Of a stretch of DNA of 64,000 nucleotides, positions 1,652 through 41,134 are shown in pieces. The notes under the pieces are model-generated. The model was not told the DNA's origin and made no database searches. It was given only the letters and a program-made list of their open reading frames with translations. The stretch lies in assembly GCA_965221325.1 (NCBI GenBank), contig OZ244880.1. One strand, written 5' to 3'. The translations under genes were made by a program, and so were the position numbers. This DNA is from Candidatus Foliamicus sp. GTDB lineage: Bacteria > Pseudomonadota > Gammaproteobacteria > Steroidobacterales > Foliamicaceae. Each line of letters starts with the position of its first letter. The first letter of the stretch is position 1.

Positions 1652-1670
1652 GGTCGGATATCCGCTGTGT

Positions 1671-3053
1671 TCAGGCGCCGGTCTCGAACAGTTGTTCGAC
1701 CTGCGCCTTGGCGCGTGGGTTGGTCATGAAAAGGATGACGTGGTCTTTGTCGCAGACCGTGGTCTCGCGGGTGAGCGGCAACAATTCTCCTGAGCGCACG
1801 ATGGCGCTCACCGAGGCGCCGTGGGGAAGCTTGATTTCTCCCACCGCGCGTCCCACCAGCGTTCCGTTGCCGGCGTTCCCGTGGGCCACTCCCTCAATGG
1901 CCTCGGCGCGTCCAAAGCGCAGCGAGTGCACCTTGGCCACATCGCCGTGGCGCATGTGACGCAGCAATTCGCTGATAGTGATCTGGTCGGGCGAAATCGG
2001 CACATCGATCCCCATCTGGCCGGCCAGCGAAGCGTAGGCGGGCCGCTTTGCCAGAGCCATCACGCGTTTGCAGCCGGCGCGCTTTGCCAGACCTGCGGCA
2101 AGCAGATTGGCTTCGTCGGCCTCGGTCAAGGCTACGAAAGCATCCATGCGTTCGATGTTTTCCTCGATCAGGAGCTCCTCGTGGGTCGCATCGCCCTGCA
2201 GCACGATCACGCGGCCGAGCCGTTCCGCCACCCGCTGCGCGCGCTCCGGCGAGCGCTCGATGAGTTTGACCTGCAATCGATTCTGCAGCCGCTCGGCCAC
2301 CTTCCGCCCGATGTTCCCGCCGCCTGCGATCATGACGTTGCGCACTTCCTGCTGTTCCGGGCGCAGCGCGCCCAGCGCGTCGCGCACGTGATCGGGGCCG
2401 GCAATGAAGAACACCTCGTCTCCATCGCGGATGGGCGTGTCGCTACGCACGGTTTGCGGGCGGCCGTCCCGGTAAACCGCGGCGATCCTTGCTTGCACGT
2501 TGTTTTCGCCCAGCGCCGCAGGCGTCTTGTCCACCAACCACGAGCCCTCCCGCGCGCGGGCGCCAAGCAGGAGCGCGCCGCCATCGGAGAACTCCATGAC
2601 CTGGGATGCGCCCGGGTAGCGGATGACCTGTTCAACATGACGCGTAATCAGATCTTCCGGCGCGATTACCACGTCCACCGGCAGCCCCTCGGGACCGAAC
2701 AGAGCGTGGACGCTCTTGTATTGGGTATAACTCAAGCGCGCGATCTTGGTGCGCGCGCGGGCGCCGGGCTCGTACTCGCGATAGCGCGAATGCACCACTT
2801 GGCAGGCCACCATGTTGACTTCGTCGTTGCCGGTGAGAGCGGCGATCAGGTCGGCGTCGCCGGCTCCGGCGTGGTCGAGCACCCCGGGATGCGATGCGTG
2901 TCCGGCCACGGTGCGTACATCCATCCGCTCATGGATGTTGCGCAGGATGCCAGCGTCGAGGTCCACCACGGTGATCTCGTTTTCCGGCTCGCGGGAAAGA
3001 CGCTCGGCCATCGTGGAACCCACCACGCCGGCCCCGAGAATCAGTATCTTCAT
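1671..3053 (-). CDS. trkA: Trk system NAD-binding subunit TrkA
   Basis: Two tandem Rossmann units: MKILILGAGVVGSTMAERL and VMIAGGGNIGRKVAERL. Length of 460 aa is typical for TrkA. Confidence 0.9.
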   Translation of the reverse strand: MKILILGAGVVGSTMAERLSREPENEITVVDLDAGILRNIHERMDVRTVAGHASHPGVLDHAGAGDADLIAALTGNDEVNMVACQVVHSRYREYEPGARARTKIARLSYTQYKSVHALFGPEGLPVDVVIAPEDLITRHVEQVIRYPGASQVMEFSDGGALLLGARAREGSWLVDKTPAALGENNVQARIAAVYRDGRPQTVRSDTPIRDGDEVFFIAGPDHVRDALGALRPEQQEVRNVMIAGGGNIGRKVAERLQNRLQVKLIERSPERAQRVAERLGRVIVLQGDATHEELLIEENIERMDAFVALTEADEANLLAAGLAKRAGCKRVMALAKRPAYASLAGQMGIDVPISPDQITISELLRHMRHGDVAKVHSLRFGRAEAIEGVAHGNAGNGTLVGRAVGEIKLPHGASVSAIVRSGELLPLTRETTVCDKDHVILFMTNPRAKAQVEQLFETGA

Positions 3054-24711: not shown

Positions 24712-27700
24712 CTATCGAGCTTGCCGGGCGCGGCTCAGGCGGGGGGTGAAGCGGGCGGTGTGCGGGGCTGCGATGGGCGCGGGAGTCAGGTCGCCCAGGA
24801 GATCGGAGAGGTCTTCCAGGCGCCGAGCCACCAGGTGAACGACATCATTTTCGCGTTGCACTTCACCCTGTACGCCGAGCAGCACGGATCCCATCAACGT
24901 GTTCCGATTGCGCTCGAAAACGCCGGGCCAGAGCACCACGTTCACCACGCCGGTCTCGTCTTCGAGAGTCAGAAATACAACTCCGCTGGCGCTATGCGGC
25001 GCTTGCCGCACCAGCACCAGACCGGCGGCGGCGCACAGATCGCCTTGCGAGGCTTCGGCCATCATTTCCGCGTTCCAATAGCCGAGCGTTTCCAGTTGCG
25101 CTCGGCAAAATGCCAGCGGATGGCCTTTGAGACTGAGGCCCAGCGCATCGTAGTCGCGCAGAACGCGCTCGCCCGGCGCTTCGCTCGGCAGTGCGGCGGA
25201 CGGTTCGGCCGGCAACTCGTCGAGGCCGCCGGCGGCAAACAGGGGCAATGGCCGTCCGCCAGGCAACCGTTCTATCTCCCACAAGGCGCGCCGTCCGGTC
25301 ATGCCCATGGAAGCGAACGCGTCGGCGCGCGCCAGGTAGCGCAGCGCACCCTTGTCCAGAAACGTCCGGCGGCAGAGCGTGGCAATGTCCAGATAGCCCT
25401 CTTCCCGCCTCGCCGTCAGGCGCTCGGCGGCGGCGGCGCCCAAGCCGCGCACCTGCCGCAGACCCAGGCGCAGCGCCGGCCTGGTGCCGTTATCCGCGGT
25501 TAGTGTGCAGTCCACTTCGCTGAAGTTCACATCCACGGGCAGCACATTCACGCCGTGCTCGCGCGCGTCGCGCACGATCTGGGCGGGCGCGTAAAAGCCC
25601 ATGGGCTGGCTGTTGAGCAGGGCGCAAGCGAAAACTTCCGGATAGTGATGCTTGAACCATGCCGAGGCGTACACCAGGATTGCGAACGAGGCGGCGTGGC
25701 TTTCGGGGAATCCGTATTCGCCGAAGCCCTCGATCTGACTGAAGCACCGTTCGGCAAATTCCAGCGAGTAGCCACGACCGGTCATCCCGGCCACGAATTT
25801 CTCGCGGAACGCCTTTACGGTTCCGGTATTCCGGAAGGTGGCCATGGAGCGCCGCAGAGCGTCGGCCTGGGCCGGGCTGAAACCGGCAGCCACCACCGCA
25901 ATGCGCATGGCCTGCTCCTGAAACAGCGGTACGCCCAGCGTGTTGTCCAGCACTCTTCGCAGTTCTTCCGACGGATACTCGACCGGCTCCTTGCCGTGCC
26001 TGCGGCGCAGATAGGGGTGGACCATGTCGCCCTGTATGGGGCCGGGACGAACGATTGCCACCTCGATCACCAGGTCGTAGAAACAGCGTGGCCGCATACG
26101 CGGAAGAAAGCTCATCTGCGCCCGGCTCTCCACCTGAAACACGCCCACGGTATCGGCCCGGCAGAGCATGTCATAGACCTCCGGGTCCTCCGCCGGGATG
26201 TCCGCCAGCGTGAGCGGTCGATCATGGTGGCAGGCCAGCAGGTCCAGGCACTTTCTCAGGCAGGTGAGCATGCCCAGGGCCAGCACGTCCACCTTCAGCA
26301 TCCCGAGATCGTCGAGGTCGTTCTTGTCCCACTCGAGCATGGTGCGCCCGGCCATCGCAGCGTTGGAAATAGGCGCAACTTCGTCGAGGCGCCCACGTGT
26401 CATTACCATGCCGCCCGGATGCTGGGAAAGATGCCGCGGGAATCCCACCAGTTCGGCAGCCAGGGCCAGGACCGTTTTCAGCCGCGGGTGTTGCGGATCT
26501 AGCCCCAAGGCCTTGATGCGCGCCTCATCCGGCCAGCCGCCTTCCCGGCCCCAGATCTGTCCGGTCAGGGTATCCAGCATCGCGGGCGGCAAACCCAGCG
26601 CCTTGCCCGTTTCGCGCAGAGCGCTGCGCGGCCGATAGTGAATGACCGTGGCAGTGAGACCGGCACGCTCCCGGCCGTAGCGCCGATAGAGGTATTGAAT
26701 CACCTCCTCGCGCCGCTCGTGCTCGAAATCCACATCGATGTCCGGCGGCTCGCCGCGGTCGCTGGAAATGAAGCGCTCGAACAGGAGATCGATCTTTTCC
26801 GGGTCCACCGCGGTGATACCCAGGCAGAAGCAGACTGCGGAATTGGCCGCGCTGCCTCGCCCCTGGCAAAGAATGCCCTGTTCCCTGGCATGCCGCACCA
26901 GGTCGTGGATGGTGAGGAAATAAGGTGCGTAATCCAGCTCTTCGATCAGCTTGAGCTCGCGCTGCACAAGTTCCCGCACCCGCTGCGGAATGCCCCGCGG
27001 ATAACGCTCGGCCGCCGAGTCCCAGGTCAGCCGCTCCAGCCACTCCTGGCGCGTATATCCCGGCGGGGCCTGTTCTTCCGGATACTCGTAGCGCAGTTCG
27101 TCGAGGCTGAAGCGCAAGCCTGCCGCTATTTCTTCGCTGCGCGTCACGGCGTGCTCGTAGCCCTCGTAGAGACTCAGCATTTCGTCGGCGCTGCGCAAAT
27201 GGCGTTCGGCATTGGCGTCCAGCCGAAAGCCGGCGGCATCGATCGTCACGCCCTCGCGCACGCAAGTCATCAGGTCCGCAAGCGGTTTGCGGCAAGGCGC
27301 GTGCATCCAGGCATCCGCCACTGCAACCATCGGGATGGACTGCCTGGTGGCGATGGACGCAAGCCGCATGAGCCGGTTGGCATCCCCGCCATCGAAGCAA
27401 AGCGGCGCGGCCAGCCCCAATTTCCAGACGCCGGCGTTCTTCAGACGCGGCAAACAGGGAATGTCACTGGCGTGGGGCGGCGGCAACACCAGCAGTAGCT
27501 GGCCCTCGGCGTGTGCGCAGAGTTCGGTGAGGCTGAAATCGCACTCGCCCTTGGCGGCGCGGCGCTTGCCGAGCGTAAGCAGTCGGCACAGTCGGCCCCA
27601 GGCCGCGCGGTCACTGGGATAACAAAGAATATCCGGGCCGTCGCGCGGTTTGAGGCGCGCGCCCGGAAGAAACCGTATCCCCGCTTCGCGCGCCGCAACA

Positions 27701-27858
27701 TGACCCCGCACCAAGCCGGAAACGCTGTTGCAGTCGGTCAATCCAATTGCGGCAAGGCCCAGCTCGGCAGCCCGCGACACCATTTCTGCGGGATGTGATG
27801 CGCCGCGCAGAAAAGAGTAGTTGCTTGCTGCCGCCAGTTCGACGTAGGCCGCATTCAT
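24712..27858 (-). CDS. dnaE2: Error-prone DNA polymerase III alpha-like (DnaE2/ImuC)
   Basis: 1048 aa with an N-terminal PHP domain (YVELAAASNYSFLRGASHP). Lies directly downstream of imuA-imuB. Confidence 0.93.
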   Translation of the reverse strand: MNAAYVELAAASNYSFLRGASHPAEMVSRAAELGLAAIGLTDCNSVSGLVRGHVAAREAGIRFLPGARLKPRDGPDILCYPSDRAAWGRLCRLLTLGKRRAAKGECDFSLTELCAHAEGQLLLVLPPPHASDIPCLPRLKNAGVWKLGLAAPLCFDGGDANRLMRLASIATRQSIPMVAVADAWMHAPCRKPLADLMTCVREGVTIDAAGFRLDANAERHLRSADEMLSLYEGYEHAVTRSEEIAAGLRFSLDELRYEYPEEQAPPGYTRQEWLERLTWDSAAERYPRGIPQRVRELVQRELKLIEELDYAPYFLTIHDLVRHAREQGILCQGRGSAANSAVCFCLGITAVDPEKIDLLFERFISSDRGEPPDIDVDFEHERREEVIQYLYRRYGRERAGLTATVIHYRPRSALRETGKALGLPPAMLDTLTGQIWGREGGWPDEARIKALGLDPQHPRLKTVLALAAELVGFPRHLSQHPGGMVMTRGRLDEVAPISNAAMAGRTMLEWDKNDLDDLGMLKVDVLALGMLTCLRKCLDLLACHHDRPLTLADIPAEDPEVYDMLCRADTVGVFQVESRAQMSFLPRMRPRCFYDLVIEVAIVRPGPIQGDMVHPYLRRRHGKEPVEYPSEELRRVLDNTLGVPLFQEQAMRIAVVAAGFSPAQADALRRSMATFRNTGTVKAFREKFVAGMTGRGYSLEFAERCFSQIEGFGEYGFPESHAASFAILVYASAWFKHHYPEVFACALLNSQPMGFYAPAQIVRDAREHGVNVLPVDVNFSEVDCTLTADNGTRPALRLGLRQVRGLGAAAAERLTARREEGYLDIATLCRRTFLDKGALRYLARADAFASMGMTGRRALWEIERLPGGRPLPLFAAGGLDELPAEPSAALPSEAPGERVLRDYDALGLSLKGHPLAFCRAQLETLGYWNAEMMAEASQGDLCAAAGLVLVRQAPHSASGVVFLTLEDETGVVNVVLWPGVFERNRNTLMGSVLLGVQGEVQRENDVVHLVARRLEDLSDLLGDLTPAPIAAPHTARFTPRLSRARQAR

Positions 27859-27874
27859 GGGTCAGCCCGCGTTG

Positions 27875-29254
27875 TCAGGCAGCCAGCGCTTGAACGTACC
27901 AGCGCGGCGGCCCGCTGTCGGGCGCCTGTTTGCGGTATGCGCTAAAGCACCGCCCAAGCTCATCCTCCAACAGCCAGTATTCGCGGGCGTTTCGCTCCCC
28001 GCTGCGCCACCATTCCGGCGCTAAGCGCCGGGGTCCCTGCGCCCGCCGCAGGGTCAGCCGTTGGCGCCGCCAGCGAATCCAGGCCGGCGCACCGCCTGCC
28101 GCTGGGGCGGAAGCTTCCACGGGCTCGGCGTCTTCCAGCAACAGCAGCGGCGCGCGCATGGGCTTGCCGTTCGGTCTGAATGATGGATTCTCCGCCGGAC
28201 GCGGGTCCAGGGCGGAAATCAGCCGCCAGCGCCGTTCGGGCAGATAGCTGGCTTCCGCCACTGCAATGCGCACCGCCTCGGCTCCCAACCGGCTGCAAAG
28301 CCGATCCACGAGGCGCGCGAAATCGCCTTCCAGGTTGCCGGCGGAGGCCCCGGAAAGCCAGTCCGCCTGCTCTGCCGTTGCTTCTTCGGCATCGTAAGCA
28401 TGCAGGCTGACCGCGTCGTAGCCAACCCCGCGAGCCATGCTCGGCGGCTTCGCTTGCAGCTTTTCGTGCAGAAGCTCGGCCAGTTGCGGCGCCGGCTGAA
28501 TAAGACGCGCCGTGCGCAAACGATGCGTGAGGCATTCGCCGTCCGAGCGCAGCAGACGCAGTTCGAAGCGCCGCGAACCCATGCCCGCGGCGGACAATTG
28601 ACCGCAAATCCGAACGGCCAATTCAGCAGTCGCCGCGGCAATCGCTTGCTGCAAGACCACGGGGCTATCGAATTCCATGCGGGCCTCGAACCTGCGCGGC
28701 GGCGGCAGATAATCGAGCGGTTCGGGAGCATGGCCTGCGGCCTGCTGCAGGCGCAGAGCCGTCGCGGCGCCAAATCTGGCCTGCAGAGATTCGGGTGCAA
28801 TGCGGCTCAAGGCGCCGATCGTGTGCAGGCCCAATTCCCGCAATACGCTGCAAATTTCGGTCTCCAGCCGCAGCGCTTCAACCGGCCACGCGCCCATCGC
28901 CTCCAGCCCGCTGCCCGGCGCAAGCAGTACCACAGCTTCCGACGCGCCCCGGGTTCCGGCCCAGGCCGCGCCCGGAGTATCCGCAATGCAAACCTGCGCC
29001 GCTTCGCCCCGCCGACGCAACTCGGCCACAACCTCGCCCAACAGTTCGGATTCCCCGCCGAACAGGCCGATGGAGCCGGAAACATCCAGAAACAGGCTGT
29101 TGCCGGGGGCCAGGGCGATCTTCGGCGTAAAACGCCAGCAGTGATGCGCCAACTGCGCCAGGCGCTGCGCCAGCAACCGCGCCGCTGATTCAGCCGGCGG
29201 CGCGGATGTCGCTTGCTGGTGCAGGCGGTGCAGCCAAACGCAAACAATTCTCAT
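27875..29254 (-). CDS. imuB: Y-family-polymerase-like protein ImuB
   Basis: FLDVSGSIGLFGGE and the overall ImuB layout, positioned between imuA and dnaE2. ATG at 29254 (MRIVCVW) would overlap imuA by 65 nt, so the start is uncertain. Confidence 0.8.
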   Translation of the reverse strand: MRIVCVWLHRLHQQATSAPPAESAARLLAQRLAQLAHHCWRFTPKIALAPGNSLFLDVSGSIGLFGGESELLGEVVAELRRRGEAAQVCIADTPGAAWAGTRGASEAVVLLAPGSGLEAMGAWPVEALRLETEICSVLRELGLHTIGALSRIAPESLQARFGAATALRLQQAAGHAPEPLDYLPPPRRFEARMEFDSPVVLQQAIAAATAELAVRICGQLSAAGMGSRRFELRLLRSDGECLTHRLRTARLIQPAPQLAELLHEKLQAKPPSMARGVGYDAVSLHAYDAEEATAEQADWLSGASAGNLEGDFARLVDRLCSRLGAEAVRIAVAEASYLPERRWRLISALDPRPAENPSFRPNGKPMRAPLLLLEDAEPVEASAPAAGGAPAWIRWRRQRLTLRRAQGPRRLAPEWWRSGERNAREYWLLEDELGRCFSAYRKQAPDSGPPRWYVQALAA

Positions 29255-29918
29255 GCTCGCTCCATTCGATGTTCCATTCGCCGGGCGTCCAGCCGGGGGC
29301 CCGCTCAAGACCTATACGCCAGCTTCGCGCGCCCGGCAATTCGAATCCGCGCCAGGCCAGAGTGGAGGGCGCGCTCGGCAAGGGCTCCACGCGCCAGCGG
29401 GTGCGCGCGGAGGTGGCCTCGCGGAGCCTGGCGCCGCGCGCCAGGAAGACCCTCGACCCGCCGCGCAGGGCACGCAGCGACAAACGCCGCGAAGCGGTAA
29501 AGCCATAGTGCCGCTCCACGCCGGGCAAGCAGCCCACCACCGCCAGCAGCCCGGGGCAGTCCAGCGCTTGTTCCAGCGCCCAGAGCAGCTCCCGCTCATC
29601 GCCGGGCTCCACCAGCAGCAGATTGCGGGGGTTCAAACCGATTTCTTCGAAACCCTCGCCGCAGGGCAACCCCCAGCGGCGCGAAGATGCGCGCGTTTGC
29701 ACCCACACCAGACGGCCCGTAGAGGCGCCCGGTAATTCCGCGGCGCAACAGGCAAGCAGCGCCAGCGCGGCAGCCCGACCGCCGCTGCGCCCGCCTAGAA
29801 ACTCGTGAACTCCGGAACGCGCAAGCGTCGCAAGCGGCCAGCTTCGATCCGCTTCCGCACCCGAAACCGCCCGCAGAAGCCGGGGACGGGCGGTCAAGCG
29901 CTCCCTCCACCGGGCCAC
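29190..29918 (-). CDS. imuA: SulA/RecA-like translesion accessory protein ImuA
   Basis: GVHEF..., GRLVWVQTRA and LLWALEQALDCPGLLAVVG match the ImuA pattern. First gene of the cassette. Confidence 0.75.
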   Translation of the reverse strand: MARWRERLTARPRLLRAVSGAEADRSWPLATLARSGVHEFLGGRSGGRAAALALLACCAAELPGASTGRLVWVQTRASSRRWGLPCGEGFEEIGLNPRNLLLVEPGDERELLWALEQALDCPGLLAVVGCLPGVERHYGFTASRRLSLRALRGGSRVFLARGARLREATSARTRWRVEPLPSAPSTLAWRGFELPGARSWRIGLERAPGWTPGEWNIEWSEHENCLRLAAPPAPASDIRAAG

Positions 29919-30854: not shown

Positions 30855-30880
30855 CCGCTTGCTTCTCACTCTGCAAGCGG
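30855..30880. promoter_or_regulatory. Dyad CCGCTTGC-N10-GCAAGCGG in the divergent SDR/gor intergenic region
   Basis: Perfect 8-bp inverted arms read from the sequence. A second small dyad, GGCAT-N7-ATGCC, follows immediately. Confidence 0.25.
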
Positions 30881-30948
30881 CATTGGCCCGATGCCGGGAA
30901 GCGCCAGGCAGGTGTAGGAGAGTCCTGGAGACGTTATCCTTCCGGCCT

Positions 30949-32292
30949 ATGCGGGAATTCGACCTGGTTGTTGTGGGTGGCGGCAGCGGTGGCCTGGCGA
31001 CCGCTCAACGCGCGGCCGAGCGCGGCGCCCGGGTGGCGCTGATCGAGTCGGGACGTTTGGGGGGCACTTGCGTCAACCGCGGCTGCGTACCCAAGAAGGT
31101 CATGTGGCACGCCGCGGAACTGGCGCGCCAGCTTGCCGACTCCCGCGAGTACGGGTTCCATTTGTCCCTGGAGAGCCACGACTGGTCCGAACTGGTGCGC
31201 CGCCGGGAAAGCTACATCCGCCGTCTGAACGGAATCTACGTAGAAAACCTTCGCCGCCGGGGCGTGGAATATGTGGACGGATTCGCAGCATTTTCCGGCG
31301 CGCGGACTATTGCCGCGAACGGCGAGGAGTACGCCGCGCCGCGCATCCTGATCGCCACCGGGGGCGCGCCCGTGATTCCGGAGATTCCCGGGGCGGAACT
31401 GGGCATTACGTCCGACGATTTCTTCGCGCTGGAAAGCTGTCCGCGCAGGGCAGCCGTGGTGGGCGCCGGATATATCGCCGTGGAACTGGCCGGGATTCTG
31501 CGTGGACTGGGCTCGGAGGTAACGCTGCACCTGCGCCGCAAATCGGTGCTGCGGCGTTTCGACGAGATACTCCAACAGGCCTGTCTTGAGGGACTTGCCG
31601 ACGCGGGCGTGCGCATTGAGACGGATTTTTCGCCGACAGCCGTCGCCCGCAGCCAGAACGGACTGCACGTTACATCTTCCCGAGGCGCAAACAGCGGACC
31701 TTTCGATACGCTGCTTTGGGCCGTGGGCAGGCGGCCGCTAACCGACGATCTCGACTTGGAGACGCCTGGCGTGGCCCGCGATGCGCGCGGCGCGATCAAG
31801 GTGGACCAGTGGCAGGAAACCACCGCCCGTGGCGTGTTCGCCCTGGGCGACGTGACCGGTCGTCACGAGCTTACCCCGGTGGCGATCGCCGCCGGCCGAC
31901 GCTGGGCGGATCGGCAGTTCGGCGGCATGTCCGAACGCCGCATGGACTACACAAACATCCCGACGGTGGTGTTTGCGCATCCGCCACTGGGCTCGGTAGG
32001 GCTTACCGAGGCCGAAGCGCGCGACGCACATGGCGATACGGTGCGCTGTTACCGCTCCGAGTTCGTGCCGCTCTACTACGGCATCGCTGCCCACAAACCC
32101 AAGGCGCGCATGAAGCTGGTCACGGTGGGCGAGGAGCAGCGCGTGGTGGGATGCCACGTGGCCGGCCCGGGCGCGGACGAGATGCTGCAGGGTTTTGCCG
32201 TGGCCATCAGGATGGGCGCCCGCAAAGCAGACCTCGACGACACCGTCGCCATTCATCCCACCGCCGCCGAAGAACTCGTGACCATGCGCTAA
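30949..32292 (+). CDS. gor: Glutathione-disulfide reductase
   Basis: FAD motif VVGGGSGGLA, redox-active GGTCVNRGCVPKK, C-terminal HPTAAEELVTMR. Start at MREFDLVVVG. Confidence 0.9.
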   Translation: MREFDLVVVGGGSGGLATAQRAAERGARVALIESGRLGGTCVNRGCVPKKVMWHAAELARQLADSREYGFHLSLESHDWSELVRRRESYIRRLNGIYVENLRRRGVEYVDGFAAFSGARTIAANGEEYAAPRILIATGGAPVIPEIPGAELGITSDDFFALESCPRRAAVVGAGYIAVELAGILRGLGSEVTLHLRRKSVLRRFDEILQQACLEGLADAGVRIETDFSPTAVARSQNGLHVTSSRGANSGPFDTLLWAVGRRPLTDDLDLETPGVARDARGAIKVDQWQETTARGVFALGDVTGRHELTPVAIAAGRRWADRQFGGMSERRMDYTNIPTVVFAHPPLGSVGLTEAEARDAHGDTVRCYRSEFVPLYYGIAAHKPKARMKLVTVGEEQRVVGCHVAGPGADEMLQGFAVAIRMGARKADLDDTVAIHPTAAEELVTMR

Positions 32293-32427: not shown

Positions 32428-32462
32428 GGCCTGTACGGAGCCGATCAGCTGGAGTCCAAGTG

Positions 32463-33908
32463 ATGTTCATAGCACGAAATGCTGGTGAGGTGCTGGCGGA
32501 ACACACTGGAGGAAAGACGGAGGACCCCTTCGGCATGCAAACAGGAGTTCGTCCTCTGTGGGCGATGCAGGTCGGCAAGCCGCATCCAACGGGTATCAAG
32601 CTAAACGTCTTGGTTCGCTTGCCACCAAGCGACAAAATCGACAATCAGATTCGCGGAGTCGTCGACGTACCGGGCCACCCTTTTGGAGACGAAGAGAGAT
32701 GCTACTTGGCAAAAGTACTTATCGAGGCTGTTGACGATATTCCGCAATGCAAATTTGAGTATCAAGTAGTGGACTGGGTGGCGACTGAAGGGGGCAAGGG
32801 CATCCAAGTCGCCCAGTGCCGCCCAATAGCGGTCTCAGTTGGTCGAGATTTCGTTAACTTAAGGGTGTTTGAGCCACCAGACATTCAAGAGCCTCTTGAG
32901 AACAGCCAGATAAGTGCAGAGCAGCAAGACGAGTGGATTCGCGAATACGCTGCTAACAGGTACTGTCGGTACCTGACGAGGCAGGAGTTGAACCAGCGTT
33001 TTCAAGATCTGTTGGTGAACATCCAAGTTCTCACACCATCCGGACGATTGGGGTTGAGCACCGACGAGACTTGGTACCGCCTGCTGCAGCACGTTATTGA
33101 CGAGATGCAATTCAGGGGTGAGCCGCCAACCGCTTCTAACCATCACCCTCATGTGCAAAGGTCCCGACCGTTTTTCGACGGTGAATTCTGCCGGAAGGCG
33201 GCGAAAGTGGTTGCTGCGAGTTCCACTGATCAAGACGTGCTCGTAAAGTACGGCAAGCGCGAGCACATGTATTCACTATTCCAGAGGGGCATCGTGTATC
33301 TGAACCCTGCCACCTGGTACAGCGCGTCCGACCACAATCAGGCTATCGAAGACAACGAACTGGCTATTGGCTTCAAGGGTGGATTCATAAGGACCACCCG
33401 TCCTCTGCAGTTTTACGACAGGAACAATGCGCCACCGATGGAAATTGCCGCCCGCGCCGTAGGATTTCGAACGATATACGAGCTTCCAGAGTTGCATAGC
33501 GACCAATTTTGCACTGCCACCATACAAGCACCTACGGACTACTGGATGTTCTGCATGGCCGATATTCTCGACCCAAGGCTCTTCGCCGACTTCCAAGCCG
33601 ATTGCTGCCTCATCATCAAGCGTAGGCCGTTCGCGGAACGCCTGTTGCGGACTGCCGCGGAGCAGCTGACCAATGAAACGTGCTACTTCGACCGCGTCCA
33701 GTATGTGGATCCTCTAGGTGCTTGGCCTGCTAGCACACACGTAACGAATTCCATCCCGCTCCACATGACAAAGGTGTTTCGTTACGCCTATCAGAGGGAG
33801 GCCCGCTTCGCCATTGTCCCCAATGAAGGCCGAGATGACCTGCAACCAAGAGAAATCGAAGTCGGATCAATCTCGGATATTGCCGATCTCGTGCCGCTCA
33901 TGGGCTAA
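32463..33908 (+). CDS. Hypothetical 481-aa protein; C-terminal half weakly DUF2971-like
   Basis: GGAG lies 8 nt before ATG 32463. Intact long ORF in AT-richer DNA. The C-terminal segment LVKYGKREHMYSLFQRGIVYLNPATWYS...EDNE ... YWMFCMAD ... VFRYAYQREARFAIVP resembles the DUF2971 layout, recognised by eye only. Confidence 0.6.
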   Translation: MFIARNAGEVLAEHTGGKTEDPFGMQTGVRPLWAMQVGKPHPTGIKLNVLVRLPPSDKIDNQIRGVVDVPGHPFGDEERCYLAKVLIEAVDDIPQCKFEYQVVDWVATEGGKGIQVAQCRPIAVSVGRDFVNLRVFEPPDIQEPLENSQISAEQQDEWIREYAANRYCRYLTRQELNQRFQDLLVNIQVLTPSGRLGLSTDETWYRLLQHVIDEMQFRGEPPTASNHHPHVQRSRPFFDGEFCRKAAKVVAASSTDQDVLVKYGKREHMYSLFQRGIVYLNPATWYSASDHNQAIEDNELAIGFKGGFIRTTRPLQFYDRNNAPPMEIAARAVGFRTIYELPELHSDQFCTATIQAPTDYWMFCMADILDPRLFADFQADCCLIIKRRPFAERLLRTAAEQLTNETCYFDRVQYVDPLGAWPASTHVTNSIPLHMTKVFRYAYQREARFAIVPNEGRDDLQPREIEVGSISDIADLVPLMG

Positions 33909-34338: not shown

Positions 34339-34632
34339 ATGCCCCAAGCTCGGGCGATACGCCTAACCGCGCCGGATGGCGGGGCGTTATACAAGAGGTC
34401 ATCGACGCGGCGCGACGCCGCAAGGGGGACCGATGCCCATTGGACTGAAGGTCGAGGAACGATCGACCCTATCGCCAGTGCCGTTCGCATCGCGCGGACC
34501 GCGCCCGGCGAAGAAGAACAGCTTGTCGATACGTGCAAGCGCAAGGGAGGCAGGTCCCGAACGCAGAAGATGGGCCTTGAGCGACGGCGGGAAATCGCGA
34601 GAGCCGCCGCCGCATGGCGGGCCAGTACTTGA
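34339..34632 (+). CDS. Small basic protein with C-terminal GGRSRTQKMGLERRREIARAAAAW motif (hypothetical)
   Basis: ATG 34339 follows a TATACT hexamer. The C-terminal motif resembles the GG-K-x-R-x3-L-x2-E-R-x-EIARKAA-x-ARW tails of small bacterial proteins. Stop lies 13 nt before the next ORF. No clear RBS. Confidence 0.3.
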   Translation: MPQARAIRLTAPDGGALYKRSSTRRDAARGTDAHWTEGRGTIDPIASAVRIARTAPGEEEQLVDTCKRKGGRSRTQKMGLERRREIARAAAAWRAST

Positions 34633-34645
34633 CCGGCGCATAGCT

Positions 34646-34921
34646 ATGAAATCCGATAATTGGGCCATCATGGGCGCCGAGGTCGCCATCTTCGCCTTGA
34701 ATATCGCGGCTATGACGGTGCTGACGCTGAGTACAAGCAACCGGCTCGACTGGCTTGAGGCGTCGGTCAACAGCCGCCTGGACTCCATCGACAGACGGCT
34801 GGATTGCTTCAAGGTCGAGCTTGTTCACCTACGCAATGATGTCGGCACGCTCGCCGAGCGTGTCTCACATATCGAAGGGCGGCTGGCCATAGATCGAGCA
34901 GGCGGGCGCGCCGCACCGTGA
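34646..34921 (+). CDS. Small membrane-anchored coiled-coil protein (hypothetical)
   Basis: MKSDNWAIMGAEVAIFALNIAAMTVLTLS (TM) is followed by heptad-like NRLDWLEASVNSRLDSIDRRLDCFKVELVHLRNDVGTLAERVSHIEGRL. Stop overlaps the methyltransferase GTG (GTGA at 34918-34921). No clear RBS. Confidence 0.35.
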   Translation: MKSDNWAIMGAEVAIFALNIAAMTVLTLSTSNRLDWLEASVNSRLDSIDRRLDCFKVELVHLRNDVGTLAERVSHIEGRLAIDRAGGRAAP

Positions 34922-36516
34922 AGTTTCAACCGGACTCGCTGTACTGCGGGGATTGTCTCGACATCATGCGAGCGTGGCCCGACGGCTGCATCGATCTCTG
35001 CTATCTCGACCCGCCGTTCAACTCCAAGACGGACTACAACATCCTGTTCGGGCAGGATCGGGCGCGGACCAATGGCGGCAAGTTCGCCCAATTTGTCGCG
35101 TTCGAGGATACATGGATGTGGGACGATGCCGCTCAGGACCGCGTCGATTCCATTGAGCGCGCAGTCGCGCATCCGGCGCATAAGATCGTCAAGGGTCTGC
35201 GCTACGCGATTGGCGACTGCGGCATGCTCGCCTATCTCTCGTACATGGCCGAGCGCCTGGTCGAAATTAGGCGCGTTCTGAAGCCGACAGGGAGCGTCTA
35301 CCTGCATTGCGACCCCACTGCGAGTCATTACCTCAAAGCCGCATTGGATGGCGTGTTCGGAGCCAAGTGCTTCCTGAACGAAGTAAGCTGGCGACGCACA
35401 ACGACGAAGGGCGACTATCGACAGGGCGCGCTCAACTGGCCGCGCGTACGCGATGTGCTGCTGCATTACGCAAGCGATCCGCGCGGCGGCGGGCGAATGT
35501 TCCGGCAGCCGTTCACCGAATACGATCCCGCCTACATCAAGAGTCACTACTCCATGGTCGAGCCGGACACCGGTCGGCGTTATCGGTTGGACAATTTGAC
35601 CGCGCCAGGCGCGGGCTCACGTGGGCACCCGAAGTACGAACTCATGGGCGTCGAGCGGCACTGGCGATACAACGCCGAGAAAATGGCCGATCTGATCGCG
35701 GCGGGTCGCGTCGTCCAGACCGCGCCCGGTCGGGTACCAGCCTACAAACGATACCTCGACGAAATGCCCGGCGTGGCGGTGGGCGACGACTGGAGCGACA
35801 TCAAACCGATCAATTCTCAGGCAAAGGAACGCTTAGGTTATCCGACTCAAAAGCCCGAGGCGCTGCTGAGGCGTGTCATAGAGGCATCCAGCAACGAAGG
35901 GGACATCGTTCTGGACCCGTTCGCTGGATGTGGCACCACGGTGGTTGCGGCCCGCAATCTTAAGCGTCGTTTCGTCGGAATTGACATCTCGCACTTCGCT
36001 ATCGACATCGTTCGGGAGCGCCGATTGCAGGACAAAAGCATCCCGATCAACGGCTTCCCGGTGGATCTGCCGAGCGCCGAGATGTTGGCGCGGGAGGTCC
36101 CGTTCGAGTTCGAGAAATGGGCGATCACACGGATACCCGGCATGGTGCCGAACGCCGTGCAGATTGGCGATGGTGGTATCGACGGTCGCGGCATAATCCA
36201 CGGAGACGGCTCGCTTGTGCTCGCCCAGGTGAAGGGTGGGCGCTCATTCCAGCTCGGTCACGTCCGGGACTTCCGACACGTTCTAACGCGCGAGCAAGCC
36301 GCCTGCGGCGTGTTCACGACGCTCCGACCTGTCACGTCGCCCAAGGCGAAGGCGGAAGCGAAAGGCGCCGGATATCTCAAGTTCGGTGCGAACCGCTATC
36401 CGGCGGCGCAGTTGTGGTCGATTCAGGACTATTTTCAGGAGCGTCTCCCGATGCTCCCACCTTTGGCCGACCCGTACACCGGGAAGGCCATGCAACTAGA
36501 CATGCTAGCGCATTAG
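34918..36516 (+). CDS. Beta-class N6-adenine/N4-cytosine DNA methyltransferase fused to a C-terminal Mrr-like PD-(D/E)xK nuclease domain
   Basis: Motif IV DPPFN at the N-terminus (GDCLDIMRAWPDGCIDLCYLDPPFN) and motif I GDIVLDPFAGCGTTVVAA after a long insert give beta-class order. C-terminal FEFEKWAI...GDGGIDGRGII...LAQVKGG...GVFTT matches the Mrr_cat pattern. Confidence 0.85.
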   Translation: MKFQPDSLYCGDCLDIMRAWPDGCIDLCYLDPPFNSKTDYNILFGQDRARTNGGKFAQFVAFEDTWMWDDAAQDRVDSIERAVAHPAHKIVKGLRYAIGDCGMLAYLSYMAERLVEIRRVLKPTGSVYLHCDPTASHYLKAALDGVFGAKCFLNEVSWRRTTTKGDYRQGALNWPRVRDVLLHYASDPRGGGRMFRQPFTEYDPAYIKSHYSMVEPDTGRRYRLDNLTAPGAGSRGHPKYELMGVERHWRYNAEKMADLIAAGRVVQTAPGRVPAYKRYLDEMPGVAVGDDWSDIKPINSQAKERLGYPTQKPEALLRRVIEASSNEGDIVLDPFAGCGTTVVAARNLKRRFVGIDISHFAIDIVRERRLQDKSIPINGFPVDLPSAEMLAREVPFEFEKWAITRIPGMVPNAVQIGDGGIDGRGIIHGDGSLVLAQVKGGRSFQLGHVRDFRHVLTREQAACGVFTTLRPVTSPKAKAEAKGAGYLKFGANRYPAAQLWSIQDYFQERLPMLPPLADPYTGKAMQLDMLAH

Positions 36517-36566: not shown

Positions 36567-36879
36567 ATGAACAAGCTATCCGAAACCAAGCGCACCACAA
36601 CCTGACGATGCGCAGGGGATGCGCCGATTTATCCGCCTCACCAACGCGTTCAGCAAGCGAGTCGAGAAGCACACGACGATGCGGAGCCTCTACTTCGTGC
36701 ATTACAATTTCTGCCGCTTTCACCAAACGCTGAAGGTCGCGCCCGCGATGTCGGCCGGACTGAACACCACCTTGCGAGACTACGAATGGATCGTGGTTCT
36801 GATCGACGCCGCAGCGCCGAAGGCTCGGAAGACCGGCCCGAAGCCCGGAAGCGGCGGACGGCACCGTAAAGCAAACTGA
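36567..36879 (+). pseudogene. Internally deleted DDE transposase remnant (IS1-like C-terminus)
   Basis: MNKLSETKRTTT-stop (36567-36605) resembles the N-terminus of a transposase family. ORF 36619..36879 (RLTNAFSKRVEKHTTMRSLYFVHYNFCRFHQTLKVAPAMSAGL) matches only the last ~85 aa. The catalytic core is missing. Confidence 0.6.
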
Positions 36880-37484
36880 TGCACTATCCGCGTAAGCGTT
36901 TCGGAACCGGATTTGAACGCTAGCGTACGCACTTGGTCGCGCTCTTGGCCGGAGGCATACTGGAAGCGCCAAGTGTCGTTGCGTAACCAGTGAGGAACTC
37001 GGGTATCCACTTTCGGCATCCGGGATGGAGTCTACAGCCGCTGATTGGGTCGCACGGGTCGGTGCTTCCACTTTAGCGGGCGCGAGCGTATTTCATGGGC
37101 GTGCGCATTCTTCAGCTGCCATTAACAGCACCGCTTCGCGTCCCGTGCGCTGGCGCCGGGCGAGATTCGGTCCATATTCGGAAAGACGCTCAGACATCGG
37201 AACGTGCGGAGCACGGCCCGTTACACCCGCGATCCGGTCAACCCACCTGCGCGCTTGGCCAAGAGCCTTTGGGTGGATCTAGCGAGTGACGGCGAGTTGG
37301 CGTATTGCAGGGGGCTGCATCTTCGCTGCCTAGACTCCGTACCGCCGATGGCGAAAGGGACGCTGATAGTAGTAGAGCAGCCTTATGCAGCCAGCACTCA
37401 CTAAACAAATAATACCAGTGGTTGACGGGGACTGGGCTGGCGAGCGGGGCACGGGCATCTAAATTTTATCCTCCCGCAATCTTG

Positions 37485-38381
37485 TCATGCCGGCCACCAA
37501 TCACTCTTCGATTTGACGGTCAAAGAAAGGACTACGTCATCATCTCCCTTAACGCTTGAGATAAACCAGTCGTATCGTGGTGCACTCTTCTCAACCAAAG
37601 GACACACGTAGAATGCAAAAAATGTTGCCTTGTTTTCTGCTCCCTGAACGGCGGTCAGGCTTGCGTCGTCTTCGATTAGGTCTACGCAATCTTCTGTGAG
37701 TCCGCCAAATGCGGGAGATTTGATCAGTTCCGCTAGCACATATTTCAAGCCAGGTTCGTGTACAAAGCTCATTACTTTTGGATCAACTTTCACCCCAGAG
37801 ACCGTACGGACACGGCAGATGAATATGCCTTTTGGTTGAATGGCTTCGCCTAAAGATACGCAGTATTGATTGTCTGGGATGTCCTCCTCCATTCGATTCT
37901 GCGGACGAAGGAAGGCTTCACTTCGACTGATGTGAATCCAACCAAGCATCTGCAGAAAAATCTCAGGTTTGTTGTTCAATCTCGTAGGCACAAAGCCGTG
38001 GAGGTTTTTGGCGCTACTCACGAAGGGGTTCTCGGTGCGGCCCGGCAAATCCGTTCCGGAAATATGGAAGTTCCCGTCGGCATGCCAGTGCATTTTCACA
38101 TCTTGCGTGTTGGCTTGCATCATGGTACGCCAAATGTTGTTGCCTAAATATTCGATCGCTATGCCTCCCAGCGAAGCGATATGGTTGTTGACCAAAAATT
38201 CATATTTGGACGGTTGCCCGGCAAGATCCCTCTTTTCGATGAAGCATCGTTTGTTGGGAGCATCGACGTATTTCGGCGGCGCCATTACCGCGAGGCTTTC
38301 ACCTTGATCGCCGATGACAAATCTAAACGCCTTGAACGTGTGTCCCTCATGTTCAAATGCGATAACGCCATTCGTTTCCAT
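37485..38381 (-). CDS. Hypothetical 298-aa protein, no recognisable family
   Basis: GGAAGGA RBS 8 nt before the ATG. Intact ORF in the most AT-rich DNA of the window. No motif I can name. Confidence 0.55.
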   Translation of the reverse strand: METNGVIAFEHEGHTFKAFRFVIGDQGESLAVMAPPKYVDAPNKRCFIEKRDLAGQPSKYEFLVNNHIASLGGIAIEYLGNNIWRTMMQANTQDVKMHWHADGNFHISGTDLPGRTENPFVSSAKNLHGFVPTRLNNKPEIFLQMLGWIHISRSEAFLRPQNRMEEDIPDNQYCVSLGEAIQPKGIFICRVRTVSGVKVDPKVMSFVHEPGLKYVLAELIKSPAFGGLTEDCVDLIEDDASLTAVQGAENKATFFAFYVCPLVEKSAPRYDWFISSVKGDDDVVLSLTVKSKSDWWPA

Positions 38382-38569
38382 TTGCGAATCCTTCCGACTA
38401 AACCGTATCGGGCTCTTTGGAAGCCGATTGCATCTGAGAATCTGGAGCCATGAGACAGTGTAACAGTTATTCCTCGGAGGAACGGGAACGGGTGGTCCAG
38501 CCTGTCGTATGCGATGCAGACGTGGAGCATGTCCTCGGAAAATTCAAACTGCGCGCTGAACCACTGTAG

Positions 38570-38870
38570 AGATTCCAGGACTCAGTGCGTGAGCTGTCGT
38601 TGACGCCGTCCAAAGCTAAGGCAAACCTGAGCTACCTCAACAGCGCCGTTCTGTCCGCCCTGCGTGATCTGCGCGTTGGCTCGGTCGCCCGAGTGTCACC
38701 GGCATTGCCTTAATCTCCCGCACTTACGGGCGCAGAAAGCCGAGCGGCGAACCTGAGTCATGAGATGCTGCGCAACATGTTCGGCTACGCCATCGCGTGG
38801 GGCCCTTGGCGAGAAGCCGTCGGCAACCCAATTGAGGGCATCGGACACTTCAACCGCGCCTCGTTCAATT
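38570..38870 (+). pseudogene. Tyrosine-integrase N-terminal (SAM-like domain) fragment with in-frame stop
   Basis: One frame reads RFQDSVRELSLTPSKAKANLSYLNSAVLSALRDLRVGSVARVSPALP*SPALTGAESRAANLSHEMLRNMFGYAIAWGPWREAVGNPIEGIGHF. The ..LPALG..v..vtr.dv.. and ..AN..l..l..mF..A..WG....NP...i..f pattern is integrase-like. TAA at 38711-38713. Similarity ends near 38870 and no catalytic domain follows. Confidence 0.45.
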
Positions 38871-39607
38871 CGGTTGACCAGAGCTCTCGCAAGCTCCTTG
38901 TTAAGGTACTCACTGGGCGTAGAGGGCATTCCAACATTTTCTGGTGTGTAGCTGGCAACTCTGCGGATATTCTCGAAATCCACGCCATCAAAATGGTTGC
39001 CTAAAATGCGATAGACCTCATTTTCTGGAATGTGCTTTACTGTGCTTACCCACTCTATAGGAAACCCAAGCATACTAACGATGTCGGACAGTTTAAGGTC
39101 GAGGAACTTGAATCCTCCTGTTGCGACAGTGCGTCTTGGACAGGAATGATTTGGAAAAGCGTTTGCACACTTGAGGACAATACGCGCAAGCTTACCGAGA
39201 TGCTCAAGGCAACAATCAACAACATCTCGGTGGAGAAGCGCTTTAGGAACCGCCTGTTTATTTCCAGCAAATCTATAGCTCCAAAGCAAATTCCCTTCAC
39301 AATCTTTACTCGTTGTCCCAACCAAGGAAACTCGTCCTTCTTTCTGCGAAAAATTCCTCAACTCCAAAAAATACTTCATTCCGGCATCTTCCCTCATTTT
39401 CTTTCGGCGTTTTACCCACCATTCCTTGAATCCAGGGACCCTTCGCATTTCTTTCTGAAGCAAAAAAGTTACACTTCGGGCAGCCGATAGAAATGCGTTA
39501 AATTCATATGTGAAGTTCTCCCCATTCAGCGCTCGTAATCTGCGCGCAAAATTTTCGGCTTCGAGAATTTTTTCTTCAACCAACAAAAGGCTGTTTAACT
39601 GGGCCAT
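38696..39607 (-). CDS. Hypothetical ~303-aa protein; the 3' ~58 codons run antisense through the integrase remnant
   Basis: ATG 39605-39607 follows a purine-rich stretch (the ORF-track start at 39628 is TTG). The N-terminal helical region has FNAFLSAARSVTFLLQKE and LELRNFSQKEG. The AT-rich body ends near 38880, but the reading frame continues into GC-rich DNA to the stop at 38696. Confidence 0.5.
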   Translation of the reverse strand: MAQLNSLLLVEEKILEAENFARRLRALNGENFTYEFNAFLSAARSVTFLLQKEMRRVPGFKEWWVKRRKKMREDAGMKYFLELRNFSQKEGRVSLVGTTSKDCEGNLLWSYRFAGNKQAVPKALLHRDVVDCCLEHLGKLARIVLKCANAFPNHSCPRRTVATGGFKFLDLKLSDIVSMLGFPIEWVSTVKHIPENEVYRILGNHFDGVDFENIRRVASYTPENVGMPSTPSEYLNKELARALVNRIERGAVEVSDALNWVADGFSPRAPRDGVAEHVAQHLMTQVRRSAFCARKCGRLRQCR

Positions 39608-39760: not shown

Positions 39761-40213
39761 TCAGTAGCCCATGTCCAGAACCTGGGCATCTGCGGCCAGT
39801 TTGTCAAGCGCCCGGCGCCGGCCCGCATCCGTCGTGTTCTTGTAGCGCATGATGGCGTCGGAATGGACGCGGCGGTGCGTTCCGACCTTGTGAAAGGGGA
39901 TGGTGCCCGATTCGAGAAGCTTGACGAGGAAGGGGCGCGAGACATTGAGTAAGTCGGCCGCCTGCTGGGTGGTTAGCTTGGTGTCCTTGCGAATCACTGC
40001 GACCGAGCTGCCAGACGCTATACCCTCAAGAGCTTCCAGCAGCATGTCGCCGGCCGATGCCGGCAGCTTGATTGCCTCGTCTCCGTGAGCGTCGCTGACA
40101 AGGAGCGATGGGGCGGGGTCCGCGCCCAGCAAAGCGCGCAGGCGTTCACTTGATTCTTGTGCGATCTCGGCATCCGCTTTCGAAGGAAGGATTGAGTGTG
40201 TCTGCATGTTCAT
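39761..40213 (-). CDS. Excisionase-family (HTH_17/MerR-like) DNA-binding protein, antitoxin-type
   Basis: LTTQQAADLLNVSRPFLVKLLESGTIPFHKVGTHRRVHSDAIMRYK is the excisionase-type HTH. The 150-aa layout ending LDKLAADAQVLDMGY resembles antitoxins paired with PIN toxins. Confidence 0.65.
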   Translation of the reverse strand: MNMQTHSILPSKADAEIAQESSERLRALLGADPAPSLLVSDAHGDEAIKLPASAGDMLLEALEGIASGSSVAVIRKDTKLTTQQAADLLNVSRPFLVKLLESGTIPFHKVGTHRRVHSDAIMRYKNTTDAGRRRALDKLAADAQVLDMGY

Positions 40214-40321: not shown

Positions 40322-41134
40322 TTAGCCGCCGCGCGGACTCAGCAGTTCCTGGGTGTCGGGGCGCTGTCCATGCCAGATTGCAAAGCTTTCGGCCGCTTGT
40401 TCCACCAGCATTCCCCATCCGTCGTGGATCGAACGTGCCTTTCCCTGGCGCGCCCAGGCCGCAAAGGCCTCGGCTGCCGGCCCGTAGGCCAGGTCGATGC
40501 AATGCGCGCCTGCGGCCGCCGAATGATCAATCGTAGGCGCGGTGCCCGTCATGCCGGCGGAACTGGCATTGATCACCAGATCTGCGCGCGGCGGAGTCGC
40601 CGCGCCCTGTTCGGCCACCTGGATGGCGCCCAGGGGTGCGAAGCGGCGCGCCAGGTCCAGTGCGCGGTCGCGGGTGCGGTTGACCAGCGTGATCGAGGCG
40701 ATGTTGGCTTCGAACAAGGCGGGGATCAAGCCACGCGCAGCGCCGCCGGCTCCGAGCAGCAGCAGCGTTGCGCCCGCGAGTTCGAGGCCGAGATTGCAGC
40801 GCAAGTGGCGGAGCAGGCCGGAGCCGTCGGTGTTGTCGCCATGAATGCGATCCTCATCACCGACTGTGAGGGTGTTGGCAGCTCCCGCCAGCCGGGCCCC
40901 GGAACCGAGGGAGTTGCTGAGTGCCGCCGCCTCCTCCTTGAGCGGCACGGTGATGTTGCATCCCCGCCCGCCTTCCTGCGCGAAGCGGCTCACTGCTTCG
41001 GCCAATAAGCCTTGGCGGACCTCCACGCGCCGGTATTCGAGGGCAATGCCGAGTTGCGATGCAAAGCGGCGATGAATTTCGGGCGAGCGGCTGTGACCGA
41101 TCGGATGGCCCATTACGCAGAAGATTGCCGGCAT
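40322..41134 (-). CDS. aroE: Shikimate dehydrogenase
   Basis: FCVMGHPIGHSRSPEIH N-terminal motif, NITVPLKE, GAGGAARG NADP site, 270 aa. Confidence 0.9.
   Translation of the reverse strand: MPAIFCVMGHPIGHSRSPEIHRRFASQLGIALEYRRVEVRQGLLAEAVSRFAQEGGRGCNITVPLKEEAAALSNSLGSGARLAGAANTLTVGDEDRIHGDNTDGSGLLRHLRCNLGLELAGATLLLLGAGGAARGLIPALFEANIASITLVNRTRDRALDLARRFAPLGAIQVAEQGAATPPRADLVINASSAGMTGTAPTIDHSAAAGAHCIDLAYGPAAEAFAAWARQGKARSIHDGWGMLVEQAAESFAIWHGQRPDTQELLSPRGG

Follow-up and report, generated by a model that had tools for sequence, protein, structure and literature searches.

The stretch of DNA analysed here (the window, 64,000 nucleotides of contig OZ244880.1) is a segment of the chromosome of Candidatus Foliamicus sp. 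(Gammaproteobacteria), and this analysis concerns two neighbouring open reading frames (ORFs) on its minus strand, designated U and D. ORF U (38696-39607) encodes 303 amino acids counted from the ATG at 39607, a start which agrees with the N-termini of its homologs, and ORF D (37485-38381) encodes 298. Both lie downstream, and on the strand, of a gene for a 150-amino-acid DNA-binding protein of the HTH_17/excisionase family (39761-40213, minus; PF12728, E=2.8e-12; TIGR01764, E=5.7e-16), in agreement with an earlier note on this DNA, which had placed the two ORFs behind an excisionase-type helix-turn-helix (HTH) gene. The reading that we favour, and regard as highly probable, is that U and D are two unrelated acquired genes in a decayed island, U being a damaged member of the Ea47-like family and D a rare orphan.

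Two acquired genes in a decayed mosaic island

The island holding U and D comprises ~8 kb of low GC content between a gene for an lpd-like oxidoreductase (30859-32292) and aroE (40322-41134). The portrayal of both ORFs as AT-rich in the earlier note holds, as GC content is 45% in the part of U encoding residues 1-250 and 49% in D, against 65-67% in the host genes flanking the island. The composition of third codon positions (GC3) further separates the genes from each other, being 44% in this part of U, 54% in D and 72% in the HTH gene; the latter, with an overall GC content of 61%, is host-like, the flanking host genes having a GC3 of 76-79%. The 314-nt gap between U and D (38382-38695) has a GC content of 56%, and the last 162 nt of the U ORF (38696-38857) one of 61%. 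U and D are hence neighbouring, horizontally acquired genes in a decayed mosaic island, and the suggestion that they are cargo of decayed mobile elements agrees with this stepwise GC mosaic, with an integrase-like fragment between them and with an IS1 fragment nearby (see below).

To judge from its relatives, which number at least 244 at E<=0.01, U is a real gene and not a chance ORF. These homologs are 250-275 amino acids long and end in a ‘...LVxxLExxR’ pattern, which in U falls at residues ~248-250 (coordinate ~38860), and no homolog aligns past residue ~250. The AlphaFold (AF2) model of U, with a mean predicted local distance difference test (pLDDT) score of 87.7, changes at the same point from scores >90 for residues 1-250 to 40-57 beyond them, and the GC content there steps from 45% to 61%. 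U can accordingly be divided into a core of residues 1-250 (38858-39607, minus), which carries the Ea47-like region (PF26900), and a tail of ~53 read-through codons (38696-38857, minus), which replaces the native C-terminal end and stop. Measured against its homologs, U has lost its native stop codon and no more than a few native residues; it thus falls short of the full-length, intact PF26900 architecture (~250-275 amino acids with the ‘...LVxxLExxR’ end), while the core is intact.

The source of the tail is a pseudogene fragment on the opposite strand (38585-38860, plus), which resembles the N-terminal (core-binding/SAM-like) part of an integrase and contains an internal stop. This fragment ends at 38860, that is, at the U junction, covers the final ~160 nt of the U ORF, and supplies, in antisense, its last ~53 codons. 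A rearrangement at ~38860 fused U to the integrase-like fragment and added these antisense-derived codons. The resemblance was detected by BLASTP against residues 113-196 of the tyrosine integrase in locus L016 (E=5e-5, 27% identity, in a pairwise comparison only), and the fragment, which is too short or too diverged, has no match in Pfam, the PDB or tblastn against plasmids. The earlier note had the two ORFs separated by a GC-rich integrase fragment. This label is plausible, with modest support from the pairwise match, and the fragment does lie in the gap; however, it is not confined to it, as it also runs into the 3' end of U. A second putative integrase piece, the C-terminal one, at ~37100-37300 could not be confirmed. 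The note had also allowed for one or both proteins being truncated versions of longer ones, which applies mildly to U, whose 3' end is replaced, and not to D, which is full length.

D is an intact, β-rich orphan protein whose alignments with P0122, P0123 and P0124 run over its whole length (32-64% identity), and these alignments mark it as a real, full-length gene. When 1.84 billion cluster representatives were scanned exhaustively with HMMER, three sequences proved to be true homologs, with identities of 65%, 37% and 32%; a fourth came from a profile search, which makes a family of five with the D of the window. Its signature, D94-G109, DVKMHWHADGNFHISG (DVKMxWHxDGNFHISG; 38055-38102, minus), consists of invariant alignment columns, so that the H-x-H stretch quoted in the earlier note turns out to belong to the invariant positions of the family; at the nucleotide level, no other stretch is similar to the distant homolog in locus L054. 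Two further ‘hits’ are immunoglobulin (Ig)-like repeat proteins which share only an ‘ADGNFxISG’ hairpin with D, and the signature is similar to the ‘DGxFxIxG’ hairpin found in Ig-like/Big_6 repeats. Because the Ig-like repeat proteins match D at that hairpin only, the H-x-H pair may be part of a β-sandwich hairpin and not a metal site. Sequence searches of Pfam, NCBIfam, PHROG, PADLOC and the PDB gave no match for D.

In every context examined, the D-family genes are AT-rich single-gene inserts in GC-rich DNA. In L001/L002, the gene for the homolog P0122 has hsdR, from a type I restriction-modification system, on one side and a gene for a DEAD/UvrD helicase of 1455-1715 amino acids on the other. 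In L054/L055, P0124 is encoded in an islet of ~1.3 kb with 39% GC within DNA of 70-72% GC (L054:7131-9635), flanked by a direct duplication of ~550 nt with 94% identity, which takes in part of a DinB/DUF6635 operon, from the last portion of the DinB gene to the first portion of the DUF6635 gene. Upstream of the P0124 gene, a 19-nt sequence is repeated perfectly in tandem (L054, 7808-7845). This layout suggests that the P0124 islet is a single-gene unit inserted by recombination or duplication. Further, BLASTN of the window against the closest relative of D (in L001) detects homology that is confined to the D ORF (38380-37492, 71%), along with a weak resemblance, seen by eye, over ~110 nt directly downstream of the D stop. 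Our best guess, taken from position only, is that D is one more accessory or selfish gene carried by an island.

These two sets of loci allow the relationship between U and D to be addressed. None of the 51 non-redundant loci of the U family gave a D-like sequence in tblastn, and profile searches of the D-family loci (L001/L002, L054/L055 and L062) for U-like sequence, or for p175 and p181, two proteins encoded next to U-family genes (see below), were likewise empty (0/4). As the homologs are never adjacent, the codon-position composition differs and a pseudogene fragment intervenes, U and D are unrelated genes whose juxtaposition is accidental, and they do not form a module. Adjacency of the homologs elsewhere was the check that the earlier note had proposed for its gene pair, and a consistent lack of co-location, which it had named as a refutation, is what these loci show; its own caution that the two ORFs might not be a native operon is borne out by the lack of co-occurrence and by the intervening integrase-like fragment.

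The Ea47-like family and its N-terminal domain

The Pfam family PF26900 (Phage_lambda_Ea47) is assigned to P0001, a protein identical to U, and to 120 of 120 homologs among the matches listed. This assignment is a precomputed annotation; the Pfam library used for hmmscan did not contain the model, which accounts for the empty hmmscan result for U. On this basis, and that of its alignments, U is a member of a widespread, functionally uncharacterised Ea47-like family. Searches of the Pfam, NCBIfam, PHROGs and PADLOC libraries yielded nothing for U except a weak match to PHROG 19262, sequence and profile searches of the PDB gave no match, and no component model of the catalogued anti-phage systems in PADLOC-DB 2.0 matched it.

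An alignment of 70 family sequences reveals two conserved motifs in the N-terminal region of U, both of which had been quoted in the earlier note and now emerge as the conserved core of the family. In motif 1, NAFLSAARSVTFLLQKE (39449-39499, minus), R44 and Q51 are invariant and K52 and E53 are near-invariant; in motif 2, LELRNFSQKEG (39335-39367, minus), R84, N85, S87 and Q88 are invariant and K89 is near-invariant (>=90%). A further conserved block comprises R127-D128...C132-C133-x-E135-H136-x-x-K139...C156-P157. In the AF2 model, four long helices (residues 8-89) are followed by a β-hairpin (95-113) and one more long helix (129-150), and short helices bundled together make up the remainder as far as residue 248. 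Antisense ORFs conserved inside U (e.g., 39032-39490, plus) were rejected as genes, since the sole reason for their clustering across loci is the conservation of the sense-strand protein.

Comparison of the family alignment with λ Ea47 (NP_040606, 410 amino acids, from NC_001416) using hhalign gave a probability of 96.5% and E=7.7e-10, with the alignment restricted to residues 30-100 of U and 28-99 of Ea47, a region which takes in both motifs. Their counterparts in λ Ea47 are LNQFLQTARTVTFIIQK for motif 1 and SRNTIEKQG for motif 2. Additionally, PHROG 19262, a 410-amino-acid profile, matches residues 28-95 of U with E=2.4e-4. U and λ Ea47 thus share an N-terminal helical domain of ~70-90 amino acids with the motifs [LF]NxFLxxARxVTFxxQK and RNxxxKxG, here termed Ea47-N, and both are non-essential accessory genes on laterally acquired DNA, ea47 being situated in the accessory b region of λ. 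In contrast, the other 150 residues of U and 310 of Ea47 are unrelated, and BLAST-level searches of phages give no relative of U. The literature consulted offers no function for Ea47 and nothing on PF26900.

In λ, ea47 is directly adjoined by ea31 and ea59 (L059, 24509-26973), for which the RefSeq annotations are HNH endonuclease and AAA-family ATPase. By analogy, this pairing of an ATPase with an HNH protein recalls two-gene defence systems that have been described.

The Ea47-N domain (~90 amino acids) heads other architectures too, in L049, in L061 and in short proteins of 168-204 amino acids. The L061 version is a 394-amino-acid protein of an Acidithiobacillus plasmid which starts with the domain. 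The L049 version (468-3017, plus) is an 849-amino-acid protein with an N-terminal Ea47-N domain, followed by a SEC-C-like CPCG...CC motif, CPCGSSKSFADCC, and C-terminal TPR repeats. The effector-plus-sensor style of this last architecture hints that Ea47-N may be a portable module.

The four-helix N-terminal bundle of U, the ‘R-N-x3-[basic]’ motif on its fourth helix and the frequency of the family in defence islands make the HEPN RNases its nearest analogy. However, U-family members and λ Ea47 (RNTIEK) have a lysine where HEPN domains need a histidine. Membership of the U N-terminal domain in the HEPN group was rejected, with this lysine (K89, in >=90% of the 70 sequences) occupying the histidine position of the Rx4-6H motif; no Pfam HEPN model matches U and no HEPN structure is found among its Foldseek matches. 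The decision of the earlier note not to call HEPN, on account of the same lysine, was therefore sound.

Genomic neighbourhoods and possible roles of the family

Neighbours were counted over non-redundant U-family loci, with the reference locus of each phmmer query included and the ORFs clustered and cross-annotated. The recurrent ones are C5 DNA methylases (9 loci), Vsr (8), GHKL ATPases (at least 6, along with two weak matches), Mrr_cat nucleases (6), DUF4420 proteins (3) and PLD nucleases (3). PADLOC labels among them include MzaB/MzaC/MzaD, DrmC of DISARM and REase_II, and other neighbours are YjiV-like giant helicases, GmrSD, TIR, NYN, AbiEii, ArdC, HicAB, PemK and PIN proteins. One plasmid operon consists of dcm, a GHKL-REase gene, a U-like gene and a 191-amino-acid gene (p191). 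From these gene contents, the U family is a resident of restriction/defence islands in many phyla. At the same time, the neighbours vary by locus with no single obligatory one, the adjoining systems are complete without U, and the family occurs as often without such systems nearby as with them. The closest relatives of U (55-65% identity) are solitary, and U is not a described component of Mza, none of whose models matched it and none of whose genes is present in the window.

The Mrr_cat neighbour, a Mrr_cat/NA-iREase1 protein of ~250 amino acids, lies close downstream of the U homolog in L010, L014, L017, L018, L031 and, at the contig end, L032. The distance was ~105 nt in the five loci measured, four of them convergent and one co-directional, which suggests a U/Mrr cassette conserved in one sub-clade. 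The island of the window likewise contains a Mrr_cat domain, recalling the solitary Mrr-type nucleases; unlike those, it is fused to a methyltransferase and stands apart from U, and D is not Mrr-like.

The only dedicated partner that recurs is p175, a protein of ~175-220 amino acids with the signature WRxHWxxAxALxRAVGHVLxKxDG ... ERNxxLKxY, encoded on the same strand as and next to the U-family gene in 10 of the 51 non-redundant loci. It is positioned upstream by 24-182 nt in seven of these (24-66 nt in six), downstream in two and fused in one. The fusion is found in L030 (672-2138, plus), a single metagenomic contig, where one ORF joins p175 in frame to a U-like protein. Such a Rosetta-stone-type fusion supports a functional link between p175 and the U family, although the single ORF may also have arisen through loss of a stop codon or through an error in sequencing. 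In four more loci, the upstream position is taken by a different protein of ~181 amino acids (p181). Despite some likeness of motifs by eye, p175 was rejected as a paralog of the U N-terminal domain (hhalign probability 0.3%); it has no match to λ Ea47, and none of p175, p181 and p191 matches a PADLOC model. The window itself contains no remnant of p175 or p181 in a profile search of all six frames. Neither the HTH gene of the window, which has no counterpart adjoining U homologs at other loci, nor the small ORFs upstream of the close relatives of U could be accepted as a conserved partner, as they show no homology.

This framework permits some proposals regarding function. The U family would be a small autonomous conflict or immunity module of one or two genes. 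The residues common to the family and the λ protein have basic or polar side chains (R, Q, K, R, N and K), and no acidic residue is invariant, which argues against a metal-dependent nuclease site in Ea47-N and favours a phosphate-binding site. Such a site, for nucleic acid or nucleotide, could be formed by R44, Q51, K52, R84, N85 and K89 and act as a metal-independent effector or sensor, a prediction that we advance tentatively and would give somewhat less than even weight. The broader proposal, that Ea47-like proteins, alone or with p175, are an uncatalogued anti-phage family with Ea47-N as a new effector/sensor domain, and that the D family is a second, ultra-rare single-gene island element, is possible yet, taken in its entirety, unlikely. 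The U of the window, with no partner and with a foreign tail, would be either a stand-alone variant like its closest relatives or a decaying remnant.

The frequent C5 methylases raise the question of whether the U family could instead be the endonuclease subunit of 5-methylcytosine (m5C) restriction-modification systems, with the window copy an orphaned, disabled R gene. In L006, L015 and L016, dcm is divergent from the U homolog at ~300 nt, in L014 and L060 the two share an operon, and Vsr is often adjacent. Type II endonucleases typically have ~250 amino acids and undetectable homology, and the U family fits this description in both respects. However, dcm in L060 is already partnered by a protein that PADLOC assigns to REase_II (E=3e-94), and other nucleases are encoded in the loci with Mza and DISARM. 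Further, a methylase is missing from the surroundings of many members, among them every one of the closest relatives of U, which counts against an R gene because an active solitary endonuclease would not be tolerated; the island of the window likewise has no C5 methylase. The predicted fold is nearly all-helical with one β-hairpin, U has no detected nuclease motif or fold, with no PD-(D/E)xK, HNH, GIY-YIG or PLD signature, and the lack of invariant acidic residues in Ea47-N points the same way. We regard this explanation as very unlikely.

A comparably improbable view is that the family comprises regulators or anti-restriction/anti-defence factors of mobile elements and not defence effectors. 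The b-region setting of λ Ea47 would suit such a role, as would the ArdC-type genes near U-family members in two loci, a type IV secretion system (T4SS) coupling protein in one, and a weak HTH-like stretch, ‘LGLSLxDIExxLG’, in the C-terminal half of U. Yet searches of 50,697 phage records and of IMG/VR gave no relative of the family, only 4 of 72,556 plasmids have a match, and most of the loci are chromosomal islands beside complete defence systems. Finally, a functional two-gene defence or abortive-infection module, raised as a possibility in the earlier note and here taken with U and D co-transcribed from the strand of the HTH gene, is scarcely credible: the two are indeed AT-rich, foreign, on one strand and 314 nt apart, and both families occur in defence-type neighbourhoods (U widely, and P0122 between hsdR and a giant helicase), but against it stand the absence of co-occurrence, the difference in GC3 and the interposed pseudogene fragment overlapping the U 3' end, and additionally the unit common to the window and the nearest D relative is the D gene alone, and the recurrent partner of the U family is a different protein, p175.

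The reading of U and D as two unrelated acquired genes in a decayed island has its own points to contend with. The AF2 model of D, built on four sequences, has a pLDDT of 54, too poor for inference, and its Foldseek matches are meaningless. λ Ea47 is entered as ‘unk’ in PMC3224144, and no family member has an established biochemical function. Promoter and terminator scans, which bear on the expression of U, were uninformative, with fewer matches than in shuffled sequence. The association with defence genes was counted without a genome-wide baseline and over metagenomic loci most of which are short. Moreover, 0 of 70 U-family members match any PADLOC model, and for that reason the defence role of the family is one of guilt by association only.

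In terms of significance, the window is of little weight in itself, being ordinary decayed island debris. The lead that it provides is at the level of the family and independent of the window: PF26900, while absent from PADLOC, displays the guilt-by-association pattern of a defence gene, with Mza, DISARM, restriction-modification, Mrr-type and toxin-antitoxin neighbours in many phyla and a recurrent small partner. The Pfam family was already known; its defence-island setting and the p175 partner constitute a reasonable lead for finding defence systems and for λ ea47. If true, the anti-phage reading would give the long-unexplained ea47 of λ a role and add a defence system.

Other genes of the island and its surroundings

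The sole restriction-type gene of the window lies in this island and encodes a 532-amino-acid fusion of an N6/N4 DNA methyltransferase to a Mrr_cat nuclease domain (34918-36516, plus; PF01555, E=3e-38; PF04471, E=6e-5; PADLOC MTase_II, E=2e-53). It lies ~2.2 kb from U, with D, the integrase-like fragment and an IS1 transposase fragment in between. The last of these is a C-terminal fragment (36619-36879, plus) with 69% identity (E=6e-26) to annotated IS1 transposases in tblastn against plasmids; an IS1595 identity was rejected, the plasmid matches being of the IS1 family. An ORF of 181 amino acids without a family match overlaps the start of the methyltransferase-Mrr_cat gene by 4 nt, the two spanning 34376-36516 (plus), and the island may thereby hold a restriction-modification gene that is complete in itself.

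Searches around the locus for Rfam families, tRNAs, tandem repeats and meaningful flanking repeats found none. The left edge of the island is occupied by a 482-amino-acid ORF (32460-33908, plus) with a GC content of 54% and no Pfam match, another foreign orphan. Outside the island, a gene for a DnaE2-like polymerase III alpha protein of 1048 amino acids precedes one for a 477-amino-acid protein with weak IMS/DUF6504 matches (24712-29308, minus), an arrangement which looks like an imuB-dnaE2 mutagenesis cassette, unconnected to U and D.

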